From the sequence record PZ386965.1: a stretch of DNA of 64,000 bases; one strand, written 5' to 3'. The position numbers and the translations under genes are program-made. Source of the stretch: a phage. Below are positions 2,765 to 45,855 of the stretch, in pieces. Under the pieces are notes generated by a model. It had not been told where the DNA came from. It searched no databases and was given only the letters and a program-made list of their open reading frames with translations. Position 1 is the first letter of the stretch. Each line of letters begins with the position of its first letter.

Positions 2765-3008
2765 TATACGCATCCTCGATACACGCTTCAGCCATTTTAA
2801 GAATAGAGCCAGGAGTATCATTGTCCATTATATTAAAGCTAAATTCAATAGCCCAGTCGGTACAGACATGAACGGCTTTAACTTCATTGCCTTCAACGCG
2901 TAATGGCTCAATCCAATACTTGATAGTGTTCTCGAATCCATCATCATCTTTAACGTCTATTTCAACTTCAAGCCCGAGCCCAGCATTATTAAATTCATCT
3001 AAAGTCAT
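2751..3008 (-). CDS. hypothetical acidic protein (46.2-like position)
   Basis: 85-aa ORF with ATG start, tightly packed between 47 and 46. Confidence 0.45.
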   Translation of the reverse strand: MTLDEFNNAGLGLEVEIDVKDDDGFENTIKYWIEPLRVEGNEVKAVHVCTDWAIEFSFNIMDNDTPGSILKMAEACIEDAYNDED

Positions 3009-4024
3009 TGTGTTGCCTCAATATAAAGTTCGTTGGAATATTTGACCAGCGCTTCTCTGTCTTCGTCTGAGATATCTGGAATAGCGTCAATATATTCTTT
3101 AATGATATCTTGAAGTGATTTAATCTCGATTTCCTGGTCATCATCAGATTCAACACTGTTATCAACTTTAGAAACCATACGAAGAGAGTGAACTACTTTT
3201 TCAAGTTCAGATTCAAACTTAGTCAACTCTGAATCAATTTCTGATACTATAACACGTACGGCTAGATTAGTATAATCAGAATAATTGATTTTGCCTTTAA
3301 ATGGATAAGTGATTCGTCGATGCCATGTTGTTTCATTAGGAATAAATTCCATACGTTCAACATCAGTGTCAAATACCCAGAATCCACGTGGGTCGTTCTC
3401 GTCACCTGCAGTAAGGGTCCATGGTGTCCCAATATATTTGACGTTAGCAGCTTCAGAGATTGTGTGGAAGTGGCCGGACCAGACTTGTTTATAGGTCTTT
3501 AAGAAATCAGGTTCAAGCCCATGGGACTTCATTCCTTTATAGAAATAAAAGCCGTTCAGTTCCCAGTGACCAACACAATACGCAGCAGAAGAAGTCTTGA
3601 TGTGCTCTAAGATTTCACCTGTATTTTCTTCACACATCCATGGAACGATATCAATCAGACATCCGTCAAAATCTACAGTAGTTGGATGCTCGTAAATAGT
3701 AAAGTTTTCAAATTGAGTTAACAATTCAGAAACAGTGTTAGGTGTTATTGTATTCTTAAACGCCATGTCATGGTTTCCTATCGTGACATGAACGTGAATG
3801 CCTGCTTTAGAAATCATATCAACGATTTCACGATTGAATTCCATTGTACGATGTGTTATTGCTTTACGGACGTCAAACCAATCACCGTACTGAATCCAAG
3901 TTTTAATCCCGTGTTTCTTAGAGTATTCAATTGCTTGTCGAATACCATCACGTTGAATATCTTGAACCCATGGGTCGTCTTGTTTGACTCCGATATGGAA
4001 GTCGCCTAAGTGCAAAATTTTCAT
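3005..4024 (-). CDS. 47: recombination nuclease subunit gp47 (Mre11/SbcD-like phosphoesterase)
   Basis: 339 aa; GDxHxG and GNHD phosphoesterase motifs; matches recalled T4 gp47; GAGGA SD. Confidence 0.93.
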   Translation of the reverse strand: MKILHLGDFHIGVKQDDPWVQDIQRDGIRQAIEYSKKHGIKTWIQYGDWFDVRKAITHRTMEFNREIVDMISKAGIHVHVTIGNHDMAFKNTITPNTVSELLTQFENFTIYEHPTTVDFDGCLIDIVPWMCEENTGEILEHIKTSSAAYCVGHWELNGFYFYKGMKSHGLEPDFLKTYKQVWSGHFHTISEAANVKYIGTPWTLTAGDENDPRGFWVFDTDVERMEFIPNETTWHRRITYPFKGKINYSDYTNLAVRVIVSEIDSELTKFESELEKVVHSLRMVSKVDNSVESDDDQEIEIKSLQDIIKEYIDAIPDISDEDREALVKYSNELYIEATQ

Positions 4025-4070
4025 ATTATTTCCTCATTAGTTAATTCATTCTATCATCCGTTTATAAAGC

Positions 4071-9475: not shown

Positions 9476-11289
9476 TGGTGTTTAACCCTATGCATGATTT
9501 CTTTATTTTTACCGAGATTAAATCCGCGTTCGTTCGGATTTCCAAGATAACCGCATGTTCTTCTTATGGTGTTCATCTTTTTAGGATCAGTTTCTCCACA
9601 AACTGAACAAACAAATCCATTTTCAGTAGGAGTCATTTCATGAGTACTTCCGCATGTAAAACATTTATCCACTGGCATATTAACACCAAAATAATCTAAA
9701 TGTTGCGCAGCATAATCCCAGACAGCCTCAAGTCCCTTTAAATTGTTTTTCATATCTGGAAGTTCAACATAAGAAATGTGACCACCTGTCGCAATGAAAT
9801 GATACGGCGCTTCACGAGAAATCTTTTCAAACGGAGTAATATTTTCTTCTACTGAAACATGGAAACTATTAGTGTACCAGCCTTTATCGGTAACATCTTT
9901 TACGCTTCCATATTTTTCAGTATCAAGTTTACAGAAGCGATAACAAAGGTTTTCAGCAGGAGTAGAATATAAACTAAAAGCAAATCCAGTTCTTTCGGTC
10001 CACTGTTTAAGATGAGCATTCATTTTAGTTAAAATTTCTTGTCCAATATCACGACCAACAAGAATATTCAATTCATGAATACCAATGTATCCTAAAGACA
10101 CTGAACTTCTGCCGTTTTTAAATAACTCAATTATATCGTCATCAGGTTTAAGACGAACCCCGAATGCACCTTCTTGGTAAAGAATAGGAGCAACAGTCGC
10201 TTTAACTCCTTTTAAAGAACTAATTCTACACATCAAGGCTTCAAAACACAGATCCATTCGTTCATTAAATAGCTCAACAAATTTCTGTTCATTGAACTGT
10301 GTTCCAATATAAGAATCTAACGCGATACGAGGAAGATTCAGTGTTACAACACCAAGATTATTACGTCCATCAAGAATTTCATTACCAGTCGAATCTTTCC
10401 ATACGCTCAAGAAACTACGGCAACCCATTGGAGAAACAGGAACTGAAGAACCGGTAATAGCTTTATTATTCTTAACAGAAATAATGTCAGGATACATTCT
10501 TTTGCTTGCACATTCTAACGCAAGTTGTTTAATATCATAGTTTGGATCATCTTTATAAAGATTAACACCTTCTTCAACAAACATAACAAGTTTAGGAAAA
10601 ATAGGAGTTATTCCATCACGACCAAGACCTTTAATGCGGTTTTTAAGAATTGCCTTCTGAATCATTCGTTCAGTCCAGTCGGTTCCTGTTCCAAATGTTA
10701 TAGTAACAAAAGGAGTTTGCCCGTTTGAACTAAAAAGAGTATTTACTTCATATTCATAAGCTTGGAATGCATCGTATACGTCTTTTTCCGTTTTAGATTG
10801 AGCATAATTCAACGCATCAGCGATTTGCCATTTTTCTGCATCCTCAATATGTTTTGCATAGGTGCGTTTAACATAGGGAGAAAGTACTTTATCTACATTA
10901 GCAAAAGTCGTTCCGCCGTATTGATGGGAAGCAACTTGTGCAGTAATTTGTGCCATAATTGCAGTAGCAACACCAATCGATTTAGGCGTTTCGATTTGAG
11001 CATTGCCTAATTTAAAACCATTCTCAAGCATCCCCTTTAAATCGACTAAACAGCAATTAGTAAACGGAAGAGCAGGAGAATAATCAATATCATGCATGTG
11101 GATAATTCCACTTTCATGCGCATTCATAATAAAAGACGGGACCGTATTTTTGGCAATGTGCTTAGACACAATACCAGCCATAAGGTCCCGTTGAGTTGGA
11201 AAAACACGAGAATCTTTATTAGCATTCTCGTTCAAAAGATCTTTATTAGTTTTACGAATTAATCCTTCAATTTCTTTTTCAATTTTCAT
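9472..11289 (-). CDS. nrdD: anaerobic ribonucleoside-triphosphate reductase NrdD (uninterrupted, no intron)
   Basis: 605 aa continuous ORF; C-terminal glycyl-radical motif RRTCGYLG; matches recalled T4 NrdD. Confidence 0.95.
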   Translation of the reverse strand: MKIEKEIEGLIRKTNKDLLNENANKDSRVFPTQRDLMAGIVSKHIAKNTVPSFIMNAHESGIIHMHDIDYSPALPFTNCCLVDLKGMLENGFKLGNAQIETPKSIGVATAIMAQITAQVASHQYGGTTFANVDKVLSPYVKRTYAKHIEDAEKWQIADALNYAQSKTEKDVYDAFQAYEYEVNTLFSSNGQTPFVTITFGTGTDWTERMIQKAILKNRIKGLGRDGITPIFPKLVMFVEEGVNLYKDDPNYDIKQLALECASKRMYPDIISVKNNKAITGSSVPVSPMGCRSFLSVWKDSTGNEILDGRNNLGVVTLNLPRIALDSYIGTQFNEQKFVELFNERMDLCFEALMCRISSLKGVKATVAPILYQEGAFGVRLKPDDDIIELFKNGRSSVSLGYIGIHELNILVGRDIGQEILTKMNAHLKQWTERTGFAFSLYSTPAENLCYRFCKLDTEKYGSVKDVTDKGWYTNSFHVSVEENITPFEKISREAPYHFIATGGHISYVELPDMKNNLKGLEAVWDYAAQHLDYFGVNMPVDKCFTCGSTHEMTPTENGFVCSVCGETDPKKMNTIRRTCGYLGNPNERGFNLGKNKEIMHRVKHQ

Positions 11290-11759
11290 TTTAAACTCTT
11301 TCTAAGCTGCTTTTTGAATGAAGCTATTAATTGTGTTTTAGTATCAGATTCATTATATTCAAATCCTCTTTGAAGCATCTCGGCCATCATTTCCTCTTTA
11401 CCTAGTCTTGAGAACTCTTTAGTTTTGTCTGGAACAAAATTAGGATGGATATTATTATCAGAATAATCTTGTTTCAAATAAGCAAGAAGAGCTTCAAGCC
11501 ATTCTAAGTAGTCAACGTTTTGACCTTTCAAACCGGAACGGTTGAACTTATGCTTCATTTGACCTTCTGCTGCGTTGCACAGATTACAGAGTAATCCACG
11601 AACTCTACCGGCTTTTGGCCCATTTAATTCGTGGTCATGGTCAAGATGGTTACCTTGAACATCAGGGTCTAATTCACGGTGGCAAATAGGACACTTACCG
11701 TTCTGTGCATCATAAAATTTTTGTTTTTCTTCTTTATATTTTGCGCCTGATAATAACAT
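11286..11759 (-). CDS. 49: endonuclease VII (Holliday junction resolvase) gp49
   Basis: 157 aa; zinc-binding CPICHR...HLDHDH...CNLCN; matches recalled T4 endo VII. Confidence 0.95.
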   Translation of the reverse strand: MLLSGAKYKEEKQKFYDAQNGKCPICHRELDPDVQGNHLDHDHELNGPKAGRVRGLLCNLCNAAEGQMKHKFNRSGLKGQNVDYLEWLEALLAYLKQDYSDNNIHPNFVPDKTKEFSRLGKEEMMAEMLQRGFEYNESDTKTQLIASFKKQLRKSLK

Positions 11760-11788
11760 GATAAACCCTTACCTTAAATAGATAAGGG

Positions 11789-11796
11789 TATTTATA
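11789..11796 (-). promoter_or_regulatory. T4-type late promoter (TATAAATA) upstream of gene 49
   Basis: Exact TATAAATA on minus strand 30 nt upstream of the gene 49 ATG; gene 49 is known to have a late promoter in T4. Confidence 0.5.
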
Positions 11797-11798
11797 AT

Positions 11799-11978
11799 TT
11801 AGTAAACGTTATAAAAGTCTCGATGGAAACGCTTATACTGACGAATCATTCTTTTAGTAGGACGAGTTTCTGAAATAATTGAAGTCCTCATATTTGGATT
11901 GTTTGGGGCCCCAATCATAATAAATTTCCAAGATTTTTGACCGTTTGTTCTTTCGCCAAAAAATAACGCAGTTTTCAT
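11799..11978 (-). CDS. small basic protein S1, 59 aa (below ORF-track cutoff)
   Basis: ATG start; MKTALFFGERTNGQKSWKFIMIGAPNNPNMRTSIISETRPTKRMIRQYKRFHRDFYNVY; paralog of 12403..12573. Confidence 0.35.
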   Translation of the reverse strand: MKTALFFGERTNGQKSWKFIMIGAPNNPNMRTSIISETRPTKRMIRQYKRFHRDFYNVY

Positions 11979-22145: not shown

Positions 22146-22174
22146 ACTATAACATAGTCCTATCAAGTTGTAAA
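22146..22174 (-). promoter_or_regulatory. early promoter within 28-bp palindromic promoter-stem-loop element
   Basis: Minus strand TTTACA-N17-TATAGT; perfect 10-bp inverted repeat GATAGGACTA/TAGTCCTATC (22137-22164) spans the -10. Confidence 0.5.
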
Positions 22175-29897: not shown

Positions 29898-30179
29898 CTA
29901 TTTTTCTGAAGCGCCTGAAATATATTTTTCAAGACGTTGTTTCATCAGCGAGCCGTTCTTAGCAATTTCTTCCGGTTTATCGCACATGCGCAACAATGCT
30001 TCAAGCTTAACGATATCACTGGTACGTTCAAATTTGCGAGTATCTATCTTACTAGCAAGTTCAGAAATACGTGCTAATAGACTTTCAGCTTCAACCAAAG
30101 CTGCACCTAGCTTAGTTGCAAATGTGTCAGTAGCTTCGTTAAGAATAGATTCTGATAAAAATTCACTATATGTTTTCAT
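29898..30179 (-). CDS. internal protein (capsid-targeting sequence [10 protein letters not shown])
   Basis: Trimmed to ATG; start codon overlaps lysozyme stop (ATGA); 93 aa. Confidence 0.55.
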
Positions 30180-30664
30180 ATATACGCTTTCCAAGTTCCT
30201 GTTTTAAATGTTGAGATTACGCGTTTCGCTCGATTAGGTGTCTGACGATACCATTTAGATTGGGCTAGATTTACTGCCGCCTCGTCCCAACGTTTCTGTT
30301 GAAGCATACGAAGAGAATTAGTAAAACCGGCAACGCCTGCTACACCCATTTGGAAGACCATATTGATCAATGCACATCGACGAACCGCATCTAAAGAATC
30401 ATATACCGGTTTAAGTTTAGCATTACCCAAGATTCCTCGAACGGCTTTATCAACGTCTTCATTAAATAGCTTTTCAGCCTCATCAAGGGTAATTGTACCG
30501 TTGCATTTACGACCGATCATTCTGTCAAGTTCAGCTTTAGCTACGGCTAAAGACGGGTTCTTTGTTACTAAATGGCCTATGCCAATCGTCCAAAAGCCTT
30601 CAGTGTCTTTATATAAAGTCAGTCTAAGACCTTCGTCATTACGAAGCATTTCAAATATATTCAT
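30176..30664 (-). CDS. e: lysozyme (endolysin, T4 e type)
   Basis: 162 aa from [32 protein letters not shown]; catalytic E11/D20/T26 context conserved; matches recalled T4 lysozyme. Confidence 0.95.
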
Positions 30665-30666
30665 AA

Positions 30667-30690
30667 TACCTCCCACGTTTATAGGAGGTA
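30667..30690 (-). promoter_or_regulatory. RBS-sequestering hairpin of gene e with embedded late-promoter-like sequence
   Basis: Perfect 7-bp stem TACCTCC/GGAGGTA with 10-nt loop; the GGAGG SD of e lies in the 3' arm; AATAAATA and TATAAACG late-promoter-like octamers overlap the 5' arm and loop. Confidence 0.6.
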
Positions 30691-30698
30691 TTTATTAC

Positions 30699-31157
30699 TT
30701 ATAGGATGGTAGTGAGCACCTTATATAACGATTTGCCCATTACATATTCCCATTGAGAAGGTTTAATTAAAGCGAATGCATCAAATTCAGGAATCTGACG
30801 TCCGTCTGGGAATGTATGATAGGAATTACAAACACTGTTTCTGAATTGCTCGTGCTCTACAGGGATGGTATATAGGAACAGATGAATATTCTTATTGTCT
30901 GAGTAATGATGTTCACCTAGGTCTTTCAGGAAGGCAGGGTCATATTGTGTAAACCCAGTTTCTTCTTCGCATTCACGAATAGCGGCTTCGATAGGAGATT
31001 CACCTGGCTCGACACGGCCTTTAGGAATATCCCACCGATGAGCTAAAGAACCTTTAGGACGAGAACCAGTTACACGCCCCATGAATAATTCTTTATCTTC
31101 GGTAAGGAAAATAATACCGGCTGATAGTTCTTTCACTTTATTTTTCTTACTCATCAT
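30699..31157 (-). CDS. nudE: Nudix hydrolase NudE
   Basis: 152 aa; Nudix box GRVEPGESPIEAAIRECEEETGF. Confidence 0.85.
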   Translation of the reverse strand: MMSKKNKVKELSAGIIFLTEDKELFMGRVTGSRPKGSLAHRWDIPKGRVEPGESPIEAAIRECEEETGFTQYDPAFLKDLGEHHYSDNKNIHLFLYTIPVEHEQFRNSVCNSYHTFPDGRQIPEFDAFALIKPSQWEYVMGKSLYKVLTTIL

Positions 31158-31383
31158 CTCGGTCCCATGATTTAGCCATTAATTCGGACATAAATTCTTC
31201 AATGCGCGTTTCTTTAGATGGACTTTCACTATTAGAGACCGCAAGTTTGTAATCTGCAATAGGACAGAACATATCAAGGTCCGTATTAAGGTCGTCTTTG
31301 ATTTTTTCTTCTGACACATCTTTATCGTATGTGTACAGATAACTATCACATGATTCTGATTTAATGTAAATTGCTATACTCAT
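31147..31383 (-). CDS. hypothetical acidic protein
   Basis: Trimmed to ATG (MSIAIYIKSE) overlapping upstream stop. Confidence 0.4.
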   Translation of the reverse strand: MSIAIYIKSESCDSYLYTYDKDVSEEKIKDDLNTDLDMFCPIADYKLAVSNSESPSKETRIEEFMSELMAKSWDRDDE

Positions 31384-31871
31384 CTCAAATTCCTGCATTC
31401 GGTAATAAAACGTTCAACTTCATTATTCTTGGCCTTTATCTTGTCTTTACGTTCCTGTAAACTACTTTTAACAAGATTAATAATGATGGCGGCGGTACCG
31501 CCGCCAATGATGCCACCAACAACACTTATGATACTAGATGCTAATAAGATAGCAATAATATCAACAAAACCGAAAGAACTCACCTTAGTACTGAAAAACC
31601 ATACCGACGGTACAAATATAATCCATCCTGTTATCCATTGGCACTTATTGAAAAACTTTTCAAGCTCAGCTTGAGTTGTTCGTATTACTTCATCGATAGG
31701 TTGATATCCATTAATGTATCTGTTCACGATAATACCTGCTGGCTGGTCGATTTTAAATTCTTGGCAAATACGTTTCACTAAGTAGGATGGACATCCTGTC
31801 CAATCTACTGAATAGTATGAAATACCTTCGTTGCCATCGTCTATATTAGACCAATATGTTTTGTTAATCAT
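31380..31871 (-). CDS. membrane protein with C-terminal ERFITECR motif
   Basis: 163 aa; two hydrophobic helices including Gly-rich IISVVGGIIGGGTAAIIINL; ends ...ERFITECRNLR. Confidence 0.45.
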   Translation of the reverse strand: MINKTYWSNIDDGNEGISYYSVDWTGCPSYLVKRICQEFKIDQPAGIIVNRYINGYQPIDEVIRTTQAELEKFFNKCQWITGWIIFVPSVWFFSTKVSSFGFVDIIAILLASSIISVVGGIIGGGTAAIIINLVKSSLQERKDKIKAKNNEVERFITECRNLR

Positions 31872-32892: not shown

Positions 32893-32921
32893 ACTATAAC
32901 ATAGTCCTATCTTGTTGTAAA
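32893..32921 (-). promoter_or_regulatory. early promoter within 28-bp palindromic promoter-stem-loop element
   Basis: Same element as 22137-22164 (ATAGGACTACTATAACATAGTCCTATC); TTTACA-N17-TATAGT. Confidence 0.5.
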
Positions 32922-41823: not shown

Positions 41824-42558
41824 TTACCTTAAGATTGTTTCAATTTTAGAATAAAGCTCTTCTAAAGAGCCGTCGTTTGTAATAACTAAATCGCCTTCTT
41901 CAATAGGCAACCCAGCTTCTGTAATATGTTTATCAGTGGATTCCGTACCAGAGCGAACCACATGAATAACTGTAGCACCCATCGCTCTAGCGGTTTCCAT
42001 TTCATGGACTTGGCGTGTATCGGTTACAACATAGTAATCGAAATCACTTCCAATATAATCCATATAATTTAATGCAAAAAGTTTAACCCAATACATACGG
42101 TCAAATAAATTAACGACAACATCCGTACCGAGGGCTTGCATAAGACGGCGGATTGACCATGTGTCGTTGATATTATTTATAGCTTCACGCAGGGCTTCAT
42201 ATGGTTTAATATCTAGATACGAATATCCACCTTCTAACGATGATAATACTTTAACATTATTAATTGGTAAATATTGACTTTGTAAATAAATTAACGCTTC
42301 TTCCAATAATTCAATAACATCCAACTTATTGAGATTTAATGGCGTTTCACGGTCGTATCCAATGCCTTCAAAGTATTCGTATTTCAACTCTGTGAATACA
42401 TCAGGATTTTCAGCATGCCTACGTCCCCAGGCTATTGCTAGAGCGTCTTTAATCGGATATGCCAATTGGTATTTTACGGATTTAAAGTTTGAATTGATGT
42501 AATCAGCAGTAGTGTCTTTACCACTACGTTTGATGCCGCTTAAAAAGATTAGCTCCAT
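41824..42558 (-). CDS. 1: deoxynucleoside monophosphate kinase gp1
   Basis: 244 aa; P-loop GIKRSGKDT; position and length as T4 gene 1. Confidence 0.9.
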   Translation of the reverse strand: MELIFLSGIKRSGKDTTADYINSNFKSVKYQLAYPIKDALAIAWGRRHAENPDVFTELKYEYFEGIGYDRETPLNLNKLDVIELLEEALIYLQSQYLPINNVKVLSSLEGGYSYLDIKPYEALREAINNINDTWSIRRLMQALGTDVVVNLFDRMYWVKLFALNYMDYIGSDFDYYVVTDTRQVHEMETARAMGATVIHVVRSGTESTDKHITEAGLPIEEGDLVITNDGSLEELYSKIETILR

Positions 42559-42611
42559 AGGTTTTCCTCATATAATTTATGAGTGATTATAACATACGGA
42601 GCTAGAAGCGA

Positions 42612-44120: not shown

Positions 44121-44767
44121 TCAACTTTCCTCATTTTACAATTATCACCATGCCAACGTTTATAAGGCGCAGGTTTACATTCTATACCGCAGTATTGGCA
44201 TATCTTATTAGGAGTATTTAAGTATCCTAATCTCATGTTTTCCTTTTCTTCAGGAGTTCTATTTCGTCCCGTAAGAGTATTTTTTATTTTGTCTCTAATC
44301 TCTTTAGGCATTATCCTGCCTCGGCCTGCTTTACCTATTTTAGCTTTATGCTCTTCGGATAATTTCTTACCCTTCTTAGCTAAACTCATTTTCTTTTTAG
44401 ATTCTTCGGAAATAGGACCTAATTTTCTACCTCTGGATGAATCGCCTATTCTTTTTCGCACATCAATAGAACGGCCTCGTCCTCCCTTTCCTCCTAGGTC
44501 TATATTATATGTATCTTCTCTATCCACAAAAGATTGATCAACTAATTCTGCTTCCTTTTGGAAAGCCATTTCTTCATTTAGTAATTCGTCACCGGTATCA
44601 TACACATATAATACTTCTTTTACAAAATTATCTAATCCGTATTTAGCATGGGCTTTTAAGATAATTTTACCTGTTCCTTTATAAGAATCATCCGGGTTAT
44701 TAGTTTTATGAACACCTATATAAATTTTATTATTTACGATGTTAGTTATTTTATATACAGTATACAT
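44117..44767 (-). CDS. GIY-YIG homing endonuclease (seg-like) with C-terminal zinc-finger module
   Basis: 216 aa; N-terminal [16 protein letters not shown] (GIY...YIG) with conserved R and E; C-terminal CQYCG...KRWHGDNCK module shared with the HNH gene at 127-843; wedged between genes 2 and 4 with overlapping stops and starts. Confidence 0.75.
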
Positions 44768-44768
44768 A

Positions 44769-45218
44769 TCATCCCTTATATCCTAAACGACGTAAACCGT
44801 CTTCTGTGAGAATTCTGAATTTAATATTTCTTTTAGCCGCTAATGCTGACGCAGCTTTCCATTTGTCGCAGTTCACAGACCACACGTAGATCTCGTTCAT
44901 ATAACGTTTCTTTGCTGCAGTAGTAAGATTTGCAGGCTTAATAGGCGGTTGAGTTTCTTTCTTTGGTTTTATTTCTACAAAAAACTCTTGACCTGATGCA
45001 TCTTTCATCCATATGTCCATATAGTATCGACGTTTCTTACCTTCTGCGTTACAGAAATATGGAATTACTGCTGTTTCACTACCCCATGCAATAATTTCTG
45101 GATTTTTATCTAACCATTCGAAAAAGAATTTTTCCCAGTTTGAACGATACGTTATTTTGGTATGGTCTCCACGGTATTTTTTTAAATTTTTCGGGACCCA
45201 TTTACCAGAGTAGGCCAT
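44769..45218 (-). CDS. 4: head completion protein gp4
   Basis: 149 aa from MAYSGKWVPKNLKKYRGD with AAGGAGG SD; ORF-track N-terminal extension rejected. Confidence 0.85.
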   Translation of the reverse strand: MAYSGKWVPKNLKKYRGDHTKITYRSNWEKFFFEWLDKNPEIIAWGSETAVIPYFCNAEGKKRRYYMDIWMKDASGQEFFVEIKPKKETQPPIKPANLTTAAKKRYMNEIYVWSVNCDKWKAASALAAKRNIKFRILTEDGLRRLGYKG

Positions 45219-45229
45219 GTTGTCCTCCT

Positions 45230-45237
45230 TATAAATA
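45230..45237 (+). promoter_or_regulatory. T4-type late promoter (TATAAATA) for gene 53 operon
   Basis: Exact TATAAATA on plus strand 43 nt upstream of gene 53 start. Confidence 0.5.
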
Positions 45238-45279: not shown

Positions 45280-45855
45280 TTGTTATTTACATTCTTCGAC
45301 CCAATAGGATATAGTGCTAAAACAGTTGATAAGAATGCACCTACTATTCCTATGACAGACATATTTCGTAACTATAAAGAGTACTTTAAGCGTGTGGCTG
45401 CCAATTATAGATTACGTTCTTATTACATTAAAGGCTCTCCACGTCCTGAAGAACTAGCAAACATAATTTATGGCAACCCGCAATTATACTGGGTTCTTTT
45501 GATGTGCAACGATAACTACGACCCGTATTATGGTTGGATTACATCTCAGGAAGCAGCGTATCAAGCGTCTATTCAGAAATATGCAAATGCTGGTGGAGAC
45601 CAAATTCTTTACCATATTAACGAGAACCGTGAGAAATTTTACAATTTAGTTTCATATCCGGATGAGCCTTTAGTGTGGTATGATAAAGGTGATGAAGCTC
45701 GTAAGTATCCACAATATAAAGGACCTTTAGCTGCAGTAGATACTTATGAAGCGGCAGTATTAGATAATGAAAAACTTCGTAAAATAAAAATTGTTGCAAA
45801 AGAAGATATAAACTCGTTTATTACTGATTTGATTCGTGAGATGGAGATTGCATAA
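45280..45855 (+). CDS. 53: baseplate wedge protein gp53
   Basis: 191 aa; begins at a TTG codon with AAGGAG SD 6 nt upstream (no in-frame ATG upstream); position before gene 5. Confidence 0.8.
   Translation: MLFTFFDPIGYSAKTVDKNAPTIPMTDIFRNYKEYFKRVAANYRLRSYYIKGSPRPEELANIIYGNPQLYWVLLMCNDNYDPYYGWITSQEAAYQASIQKYANAGGDQILYHINENREKFYNLVSYPDEPLVWYDKGDEARKYPQYKGPLAAVDTYEAAVLDNEKLRKIKIVAKEDINSFITDLIREMEIA

Follow-up and report, generated by a model that had tools for sequence, protein, structure and literature searches.

The DNA analysed here, a window of 64,000 nucleotides (nt), comes from a Mosigvirus and is about 98% identical to the DNA of many RB69-like coliphages. Gene e, for the soluble lysozyme (endolysin), lies on the minus strand at 30176..30664 and encodes 162 amino acids with the N-terminus MNIFEMLR. 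Its product matches the Pfam family Phage_lysozyme (E = 2.3e-13), and residues 1-161 align with residues 1-161 of T4 lysozyme (E = 1.8e-89). By these alignments e is the T4 lysozyme orthologue. The gene upstream on the same strand is nudE (30699..31157; Nudix hydrolase; Pfam NUDIX, E = 2e-16), and downstream there is a small internal head protein gene and next denV. The nudE-e adjacency is as in T4, and the entire neighbourhood is as in RB69. In the minus-strand mRNA the nudE stop codon UAA (30701..30699) is followed by GU, AAUAAAUACCUCCUAUAAACGUGGGAGGUAUU and then the e start codon AUG (30664..30662).

Two other starts have been given for e or its RB69 counterpart. A mechanical open reading frame call begins at GTG 30676 and gives 166 amino acids, but this codon sits within the 3' arm of the hairpin described below and was rejected as the start of e. 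The RefSeq record for RB69 (NC_004928, locus L077, 65200..65673) annotates e from an internal ATG at codon 6, giving 157 amino acids. This start was rejected as well, because the T4 lysozyme alignment begins at Met1. The ATG at 30664 (MNIFEM) is taken as the start since T4 lysozyme aligns from its Met1 and since the Shine-Dalgarno (SD) spacing is right only there. By the same homology and spacing, the true start of RB69 e would lie 15 nt upstream of the RefSeq ATG. The RefSeq start obscures how the SD hairpin and the start codon are related.

The leader of e folds into a hairpin of 12 bp in both the RNAfold minimum free energy and centroid structures. Its 5' arm is AAUACCUCCUAU (30692..30681, minus strand), its loop is the tetraloop AAAC (30680..30677) and its 3' arm is GUGGGAGGUAUU (30676..30665). 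The nine outermost pairs are perfect Watson-Crick pairs (AAUACCUCC/GGAGGUAUU), and pairs 10-12, toward the loop, are U.G, A-U and U.G. The 3' arm holds the SD and the complete spacer between SD and AUG, and the stem begins 6 nt after the nudE stop codon. A sequence-only reading of this DNA had described a perfect 7-bp hairpin at the e SD, formed by TACCTCC (30690..30684) and GGAGGTA (30673..30667), 10 nt apart. Both segments are present and pair in this way, but the stem is 12 bp rather than 7. The same reading had placed a GGAGG SD in the 3' arm, 4 nt before the ATG, and this is correct: GGAGG can be read directly from the sequence at 30673..30669. In the long leader the paired probability of this SD is 1.00.

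How unusual is such a structure? The 12-bp hairpin has a free energy of -16.3 kcal/mol. An 81-nt segment that contains it folds at -19.6 kcal/mol (z = -2.69); among 200 dinucleotide shuffles, 2 fold equally well. When the region from -45 to +12 was folded for each of the 119 genes called in the window, the e start region was the second most stable (-16.3 kcal/mol, SD paired, vs a mean of -6.8 with a standard deviation of 3.9). On the other hand, the window contains eight perfect inverted repeats with arms of 9 bp or more and a loop of 3-12 nt, vs 3.5 +/- 1.65 in shuffled sequence, and for this reason the lone hairpin at e is only mildly unusual. The weight of the evidence therefore falls on the placement of the hairpin over the SD and on its conservation across lineages, not on the hairpin alone. 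No Rfam covariance model matched either strand of 30000..31400 at E <= 1. As a separate observation, the most stable fold among the 119 starts (-19.8 kcal/mol) belongs to the dNMP kinase gene, gene 1 (41824..42558, minus strand; leader about 42559..42603), where AGCUCCGUA, 45 nt upstream, pairs with UAUGGAGCU across the start codon.

Adjoining and overlapping the 5' arm of the e hairpin is the octamer AATAAATA (RNA AAUAAAUA; 30696..30689, minus strand), a putative gp55-type late promoter and the A(-13) variant of TATAAATA. It occupies the position of the upstream e late promoter of T4, and its last 4 nt are the first 4 nt of the 5' arm. With the octamer taken as -13..-6 (PMC1524935), the start of transcription is expected 6 nt past it, which puts the predicted +1 at 30683, roughly +/- 2 nt. 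In the predicted late transcript, UAU would be all that remains of the 5' arm, 9 of its 12 nt having been lost. In folds of the window leader, the long form reaches -18.8 kcal/mol with an SD paired probability of 1.00, vs -1.6 kcal/mol and 0.23 for the predicted late form.

The departure of AATAAATA from the canonical octamer is of a common kind. In T4, 32 of 50 late sites are perfect and 9 of 50 have A(-13), the commonest variant (Geiduschek and Kassavetis, PMC2988020), and in RB69 and its relatives there is little conservation of T(-13), the base being commonly A or T (Nolan et al., PMC1524935). Within the window, eight of the nine copies of TATAAATA precede a gene start on the same strand by 24-45 nt. 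The figure for AATAAATA is three of eight, the genes being e, rI (lysis inhibition; 26 nt) and gp15 (tail sheath stabiliser; 46 nt). The gp15 site is the RB69 promoter Pl:97979 predicted by Nolan and colleagues. Their 2006 hidden Markov model (HMM) scan lists 31 RB69 late promoters and none near e, at 65.7 kb (PMC1524935). The absence of e from the list is probably due to their 43-nt model, in which G+C-rich sequence such as the CCTCC after the e octamer would be penalised. CCTCC lies just downstream of AATAAATA here and likewise in T4, where the promoter works. In sum, AATAAATA looks like a credible late promoter on sequence grounds. Elsewhere in the window, two canonical TATAAATA boxes stand back to back in one intergenic region, at 45230 (plus strand) and 45252 (minus strand). 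They face a 191-amino-acid open reading frame at 45280..45855 (plus) and one of 149 amino acids at 44769..45218 (minus), presumably genes 53 and 4 by position. These boxes are probably Pl:80613 and Pl:80684 of the RB69 list, a match by approximate coordinate offset only.

The sequence-only reading had proposed two late-promoter-like octamers, one overlapping the 5' arm and one the loop. Both are found at these places, but AATAAATA appears to be the sole credible promoter of the two. The other, TATAAACG (30683..30676, minus strand), lies at the position of the second (loop) late promoter of T4. It is degenerate and not conserved, and it differs from TATAAATA at the last two positions, which the upstream box keeps invariant. 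A start 6 nt past it would fall inside the SD and give GGUAUUAUG, a transcript essentially without an SD. The two other gene-adjacent copies of TATAAACG in the window are in what look like middle-type promoter contexts, the one upstream of gp47 being TGCTTTA-N12-TAGAAT. The lack of conservation, the start inside the SD and these contexts led to its rejection as a late promoter. It is probably inactive, whether it is a decayed equivalent of the T4 loop promoter or one that never functioned. No second late promoter was found in the loop here: only the T4 group has TATAAATA at that position, and no conserved promoter-like loop sequence was seen outside that group among the T4-like leaders compared. 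In other words, the loop promoter is a trait of T4 and not part of the mechanism. A third octamer, the near-consensus TATAAGTA (30703..30696, minus strand), overlaps the nudE stop codon and carries an A-to-G change at an otherwise invariant position. It was judged non-functional. It is also irrelevant to the hairpin because, with a start at 30690, the 5' arm would still have 10 of its 12 nt and the stem 10 of its 12 pairs. The gp47 context just mentioned is itself a MotA-box-like middle promoter (4066..4030, minus strand; gp47 at 3005..4024) in which TATAAACG is incidental, and a similar middle-type context is found upstream of gp2, at 44164.

The system that this arrangement recalls is gene e of T4, a textbook example of translational timing since 1986. 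The mechanism was reportedly shown by experiment in that year, by McPheeters et al. in Nucleic Acids Research. In T4, early transcripts extend into e, and a structure that sequesters the SD cuts lysozyme synthesis about 100-fold, according to a review by Uzan and Miller (2010, PMC3014915). The review states that transcription from either of two late promoters just before the ribosome binding site (RBS) yields transcripts that are free of the 5' strand and well translated. It adds that close T4-type phages are predicted to have similar leaders, in each of which the DNA for the 5' strand contains a T4-type late promoter. RB69 would be among the phages of its Figure 5, by inference from being in none of its exclusion lists.

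The likeness between the two phages extends to single bases. The genes are orthologous, nudE lies upstream in both and the leaders (T4 TTTTATAAATACCTTCTATAAATACTTAGGAGGTATTATG vs AGTAATAAATACCTCCTATAAACGTGGGAGGTATTATG here) are homologous base for base, including the stretch AAUACC...GGAGGUAUUAUG. Both leaders have a late-promoter octamer at an equivalent position, overlapping the foot of the 5' arm, and the two do not differ in SD or spacer. The RB69 e leader is identical to that of the window from the octamer to the ATG. However, there are differences. T4 has two canonical TATAAATA boxes, in the 5' arm and in a 10-nt loop, whereas the present phage has AATAAATA and the decayed TATAAACG. The stem here is 12 bp at -16.3 kcal/mol with a 4-nt loop; that of T4 is 11 bp at -13.3 kcal/mol with the 10-nt loop. 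In addition, the T4 mechanism has been shown by experiment, whereas the present case is known from sequence and in silico folding.

Conservation was examined in leaders from other T4-like phages. A scan of IMG/VR with the e protein returned 75 loci, of which 33 T4-like ones were kept together with T4 and the window. These yield 18 to 23 distinct leaders, depending on the length of flank included. A MAFFT/RNAalifold consensus of 18 leaders gave a meaningless structure of five pairs and was set aside. The consensus failed because the register of the stem shifts by 1 bp between lineages, and folds of each sequence anchored on the SD core were used instead. In these, all four SD-core bases are paired in 18 of 18 distinct leaders, and the hairpin free energies range from -8.7 to -16.6 kcal/mol. 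The layout of T4 gene e as given in PMC3014915 is present in all 18, and the suggestion in the sequence-only reading that the locus matches the known T4 mechanism holds up well.

Two stem registers reach the same sequestration of the SD. In the type I register, found in T4, RB69 and the JS98-like, VR-like and S16-like phages, positions 5-8 of the octamer pair with the spacer UAUU. The type II register has the spacer UCCU and leaves the octamer unpaired, and its stem reaches further toward the loop (CUCCUAUC/GAUAGGAG). At two places in the stem both partners have changed in a compensatory way: one lies within the SD (U-A/C-G, in the CCCC/GGGG phages) and the other toward the loop (A-U/C-G). The T4-like leaders also show several G.U changes that affect one side alone. 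Classic covariation is thin in the e leader, since the 3' arm is constrained as an SD and the 5' arm is constrained in part as a promoter. Folds across the leaders repeat the pattern of the window, with -14.5 to -23.6 kcal/mol for the early forms vs 0 to -6.8 kcal/mol for the predicted late ones. With 56 nt of the leader as query, 153 Mosigvirus phage records were found, and 61 of these match it exactly. Six of the variant records were sampled; in these and RB69 the commonest difference falls in the last nudE codons, and the same set contains two substitutions in the stem, U.G to U-A and C-G to U.G, both of which keep the pairing.

The octamer region shows a conservation of its own. In 23 octamer-anchored leaders ATAAATA-C, that is octamer positions 2-8 and the next C, is invariant (23 of 23). 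Octamer position 1 carries 0.58 bits (A in 13, T in 5 and G in 5), and the 20 columns upstream of the octamer carry 0-0.8 bits. The octamer lies outside the stem in about 10 of the 23 leaders and ATAAATA-C is still invariant. Pairing is therefore no explanation for the invariance, and the promoter reading explains it. With regard to position 1, it has been reported that the -13 base is A or T in the coliphage relatives, with a/g only in the distinct consensus of Aeh1 (PMC1524935, PMC2988020). In the present survey, G at -13 (GATAAATA) occurs at the e late-promoter site, about 33 nt upstream, in IMG/VR loci L015-L017, L020, L026 and L027. As for the group as a whole, the comparison moderately favours a Tevenvirinae design that consists of a single NATAAATA box, with A, T or G at -13, and a hairpin of two registers, the two promoters being peculiar to the T4 group.

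Taken together, the hairpin and AATAAATA very probably constitute the Mosigvirus (RB69-type) version of the translational timing device of T4 gene e. The core of the T4-type interpretation offered in the sequence-only reading is in this sense supported by the sequence comparisons. The proposed course of events is as follows. Early in infection, host RNA polymerase would start at early or middle promoters further upstream, cross nudE and continue into e. In the long transcript the 12-bp hairpin (about -16 kcal/mol) would hide the SD and the spacer, so that 30S subunits could not bind and no lysozyme would be made. After the start of DNA replication, polymerase programmed by gp55, gp33 and gp45 would initiate at AATAAATA (30696..30689). 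The late mRNA, beginning at about 30683, would have a 5' arm shortened by 9 of its 12 nt, leaving the SD single-stranded and the lysozyme message open to translation. The early read-through, the promoter activity, the position of +1 and the effect on translation are all carried over by analogy with the experiments on T4; a literature search for transcript or translation data on the regulation of RB69-type e found none.

Where might the long transcripts begin? A consensus scan found same-strand sigma-70-like matches upstream of e at 32921, 34213 and 35101. The nearest sigma-70-type candidate is TTTACA-17-TATAGT with an upstream TG (32893..32921, minus strand; 10 of 12 matches), and it is a possible source of the read-through transcripts. 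A scan of the same strand between these upstream promoter candidates and e found no convincing terminator. A 24-nt palindromic element, TAGGACTA-TGTTATAG-TAGTCCTA, occurs in four copies on the minus strand (5' ends at 22162, 32909, 34201 and 40752), one of them a variant, TAGGGCTA. At least the copies at 32909 and 34201 overlap the TG-TATAGT -10 element of a TTTACA-17-TATAGT promoter candidate before a small gene. The element, which may be a promoter-associated hairpin or operator, is unrelated to the e hairpin and supplies three of the window's eight perfect inverted repeats of 9 bp or more.

Could the hairpin serve nudE rather than e? It might be mainly a Rho-independent terminator or attenuator, or a stabiliser of the 3' end of the early nudE transcript, with sequestration of the SD incidental. 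Several Mosigvirus entries in GenBank annotate it as a terminator. The PhAPEC2 record (L078, 2571..2607) labels the hairpin a 'putative terminator determined with ARNold', and the records of NBG1 (L083, 34..81), ATK47 and KAW3E185 carry similar labels; the PhAPEC2 and NBG1 features correspond to about 30655..30700 of the window. The stem is indeed G+C-rich and comes directly after the nudE stop codon, with A+U-rich sequence behind it, and to that extent it shares the form of intrinsic terminators. However, a terminator should have a U-tract and this hairpin has none: the tail AUGAAUAU has 3 U in 8. Nor do the relatives conserve one. The 8-nt tails hold 2-3 U in 20 of 23 leaders and up to 5 in the remainder, and in the type II leaders the tail begins GUCC. 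Unlike intrinsic terminators, the hairpin overlaps the RBS and start codon of the following gene, and a scan of the window for terminators did not call it. What is conserved is the pairing of the SD and the abutting promoter, not a terminator tail. Moreover, early transcripts are reported to run into e in T4 (PMC3014915). A terminator function was rejected on the lack of a U-tract here or conserved in relatives, and as the main role of the hairpin it is quite unlikely, although a minor attenuating side effect might still exist.

A different doubt concerns the promoter. What if both T4-type e late promoters have decayed or are non-functional in Mosigviruses, and the SD on long transcripts is freed in some other way? 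For example, an endonucleolytic cut might fall in the 5' arm or loop, or the stem might be melted by ribosomes terminating at nudE (coupling). Both AATAAATA and TATAAACG deviate from TATAAATA, and the HMM scan of Nolan et al. has no entry at RB69 e. Just 6 nt separate the nudE stop codon from the stem, so that ribosomes terminating there might transiently loosen its base. However, A(-13) is a normal alternative, and the same octamer stands upstream of bona fide late genes in this phage. The invariance of ATAAATA-C in all lineages, even where it is unpaired, would be unexpected for a decayed promoter. With regard to coupling, T4 has a similar gap of about 7 nt between the nudE stop and the stem, and its early mRNA is reportedly poorly translated. 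Decay of the promoters is on this evidence highly unlikely. Finally, the hairpin might be a chance inverted repeat with no function, given that a shuffled 64-kb window has about 3.5 perfect short-loop repeats of 9 bp or more and that the anti-SD-like CCUCC is a short motif. The odds of this are almost negligible. Several Tevenvirinae lineages, represented by 18 distinct leaders, retain the hairpin, and where it differs between them, compensatory changes and shifts of register maintain the pairing of the SD; the e start region ranks second of 119 in fold stability; and variants in sequenced isolates preserve the pairing. The comparative data effectively refute this last possibility.

The same logic, in which the length of the transcript sets its translatability, is found in other genes whose hairpins are not homologous to the e leader. 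The review PMC3014915 describes T4 genes 49 (endonuclease VII), soc and I-TevI as having a sequestered RBS with a late promoter inside the structure, and Aeh1 mobE as having its RBS sequestered on long early/middle transcripts. The window contains an e-like design at gene 49 as well (endonuclease VII, phrog_423; 11286..11759, minus strand). At 11759..11800 a canonical TATAAATA (11796..11789) is followed by a 10-bp SD hairpin (ACCCUUAUCU/AGGUAAGGGU), in which the paired probability of the SD is 0.93.

The principle at work in gene e is already known from T4, and the RB69-type copy adds no new one. Its value is in part one of annotation: the 'terminator' label on the hairpin, the start codon of RB69 e and the missing RB69 e late promoter all deserve correction. 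The additions to biology are small. A single promoter with a free -13 base would, on the moderately favoured reading given above, be the rule in Tevenvirinae and the second promoter of T4 the exception, and the stem comes in two registers. As for the phage itself, the device would prevent an enzyme that degrades the cell wall from appearing before progeny are assembled, and for this the length of the transcript would suffice, with no dedicated regulator.
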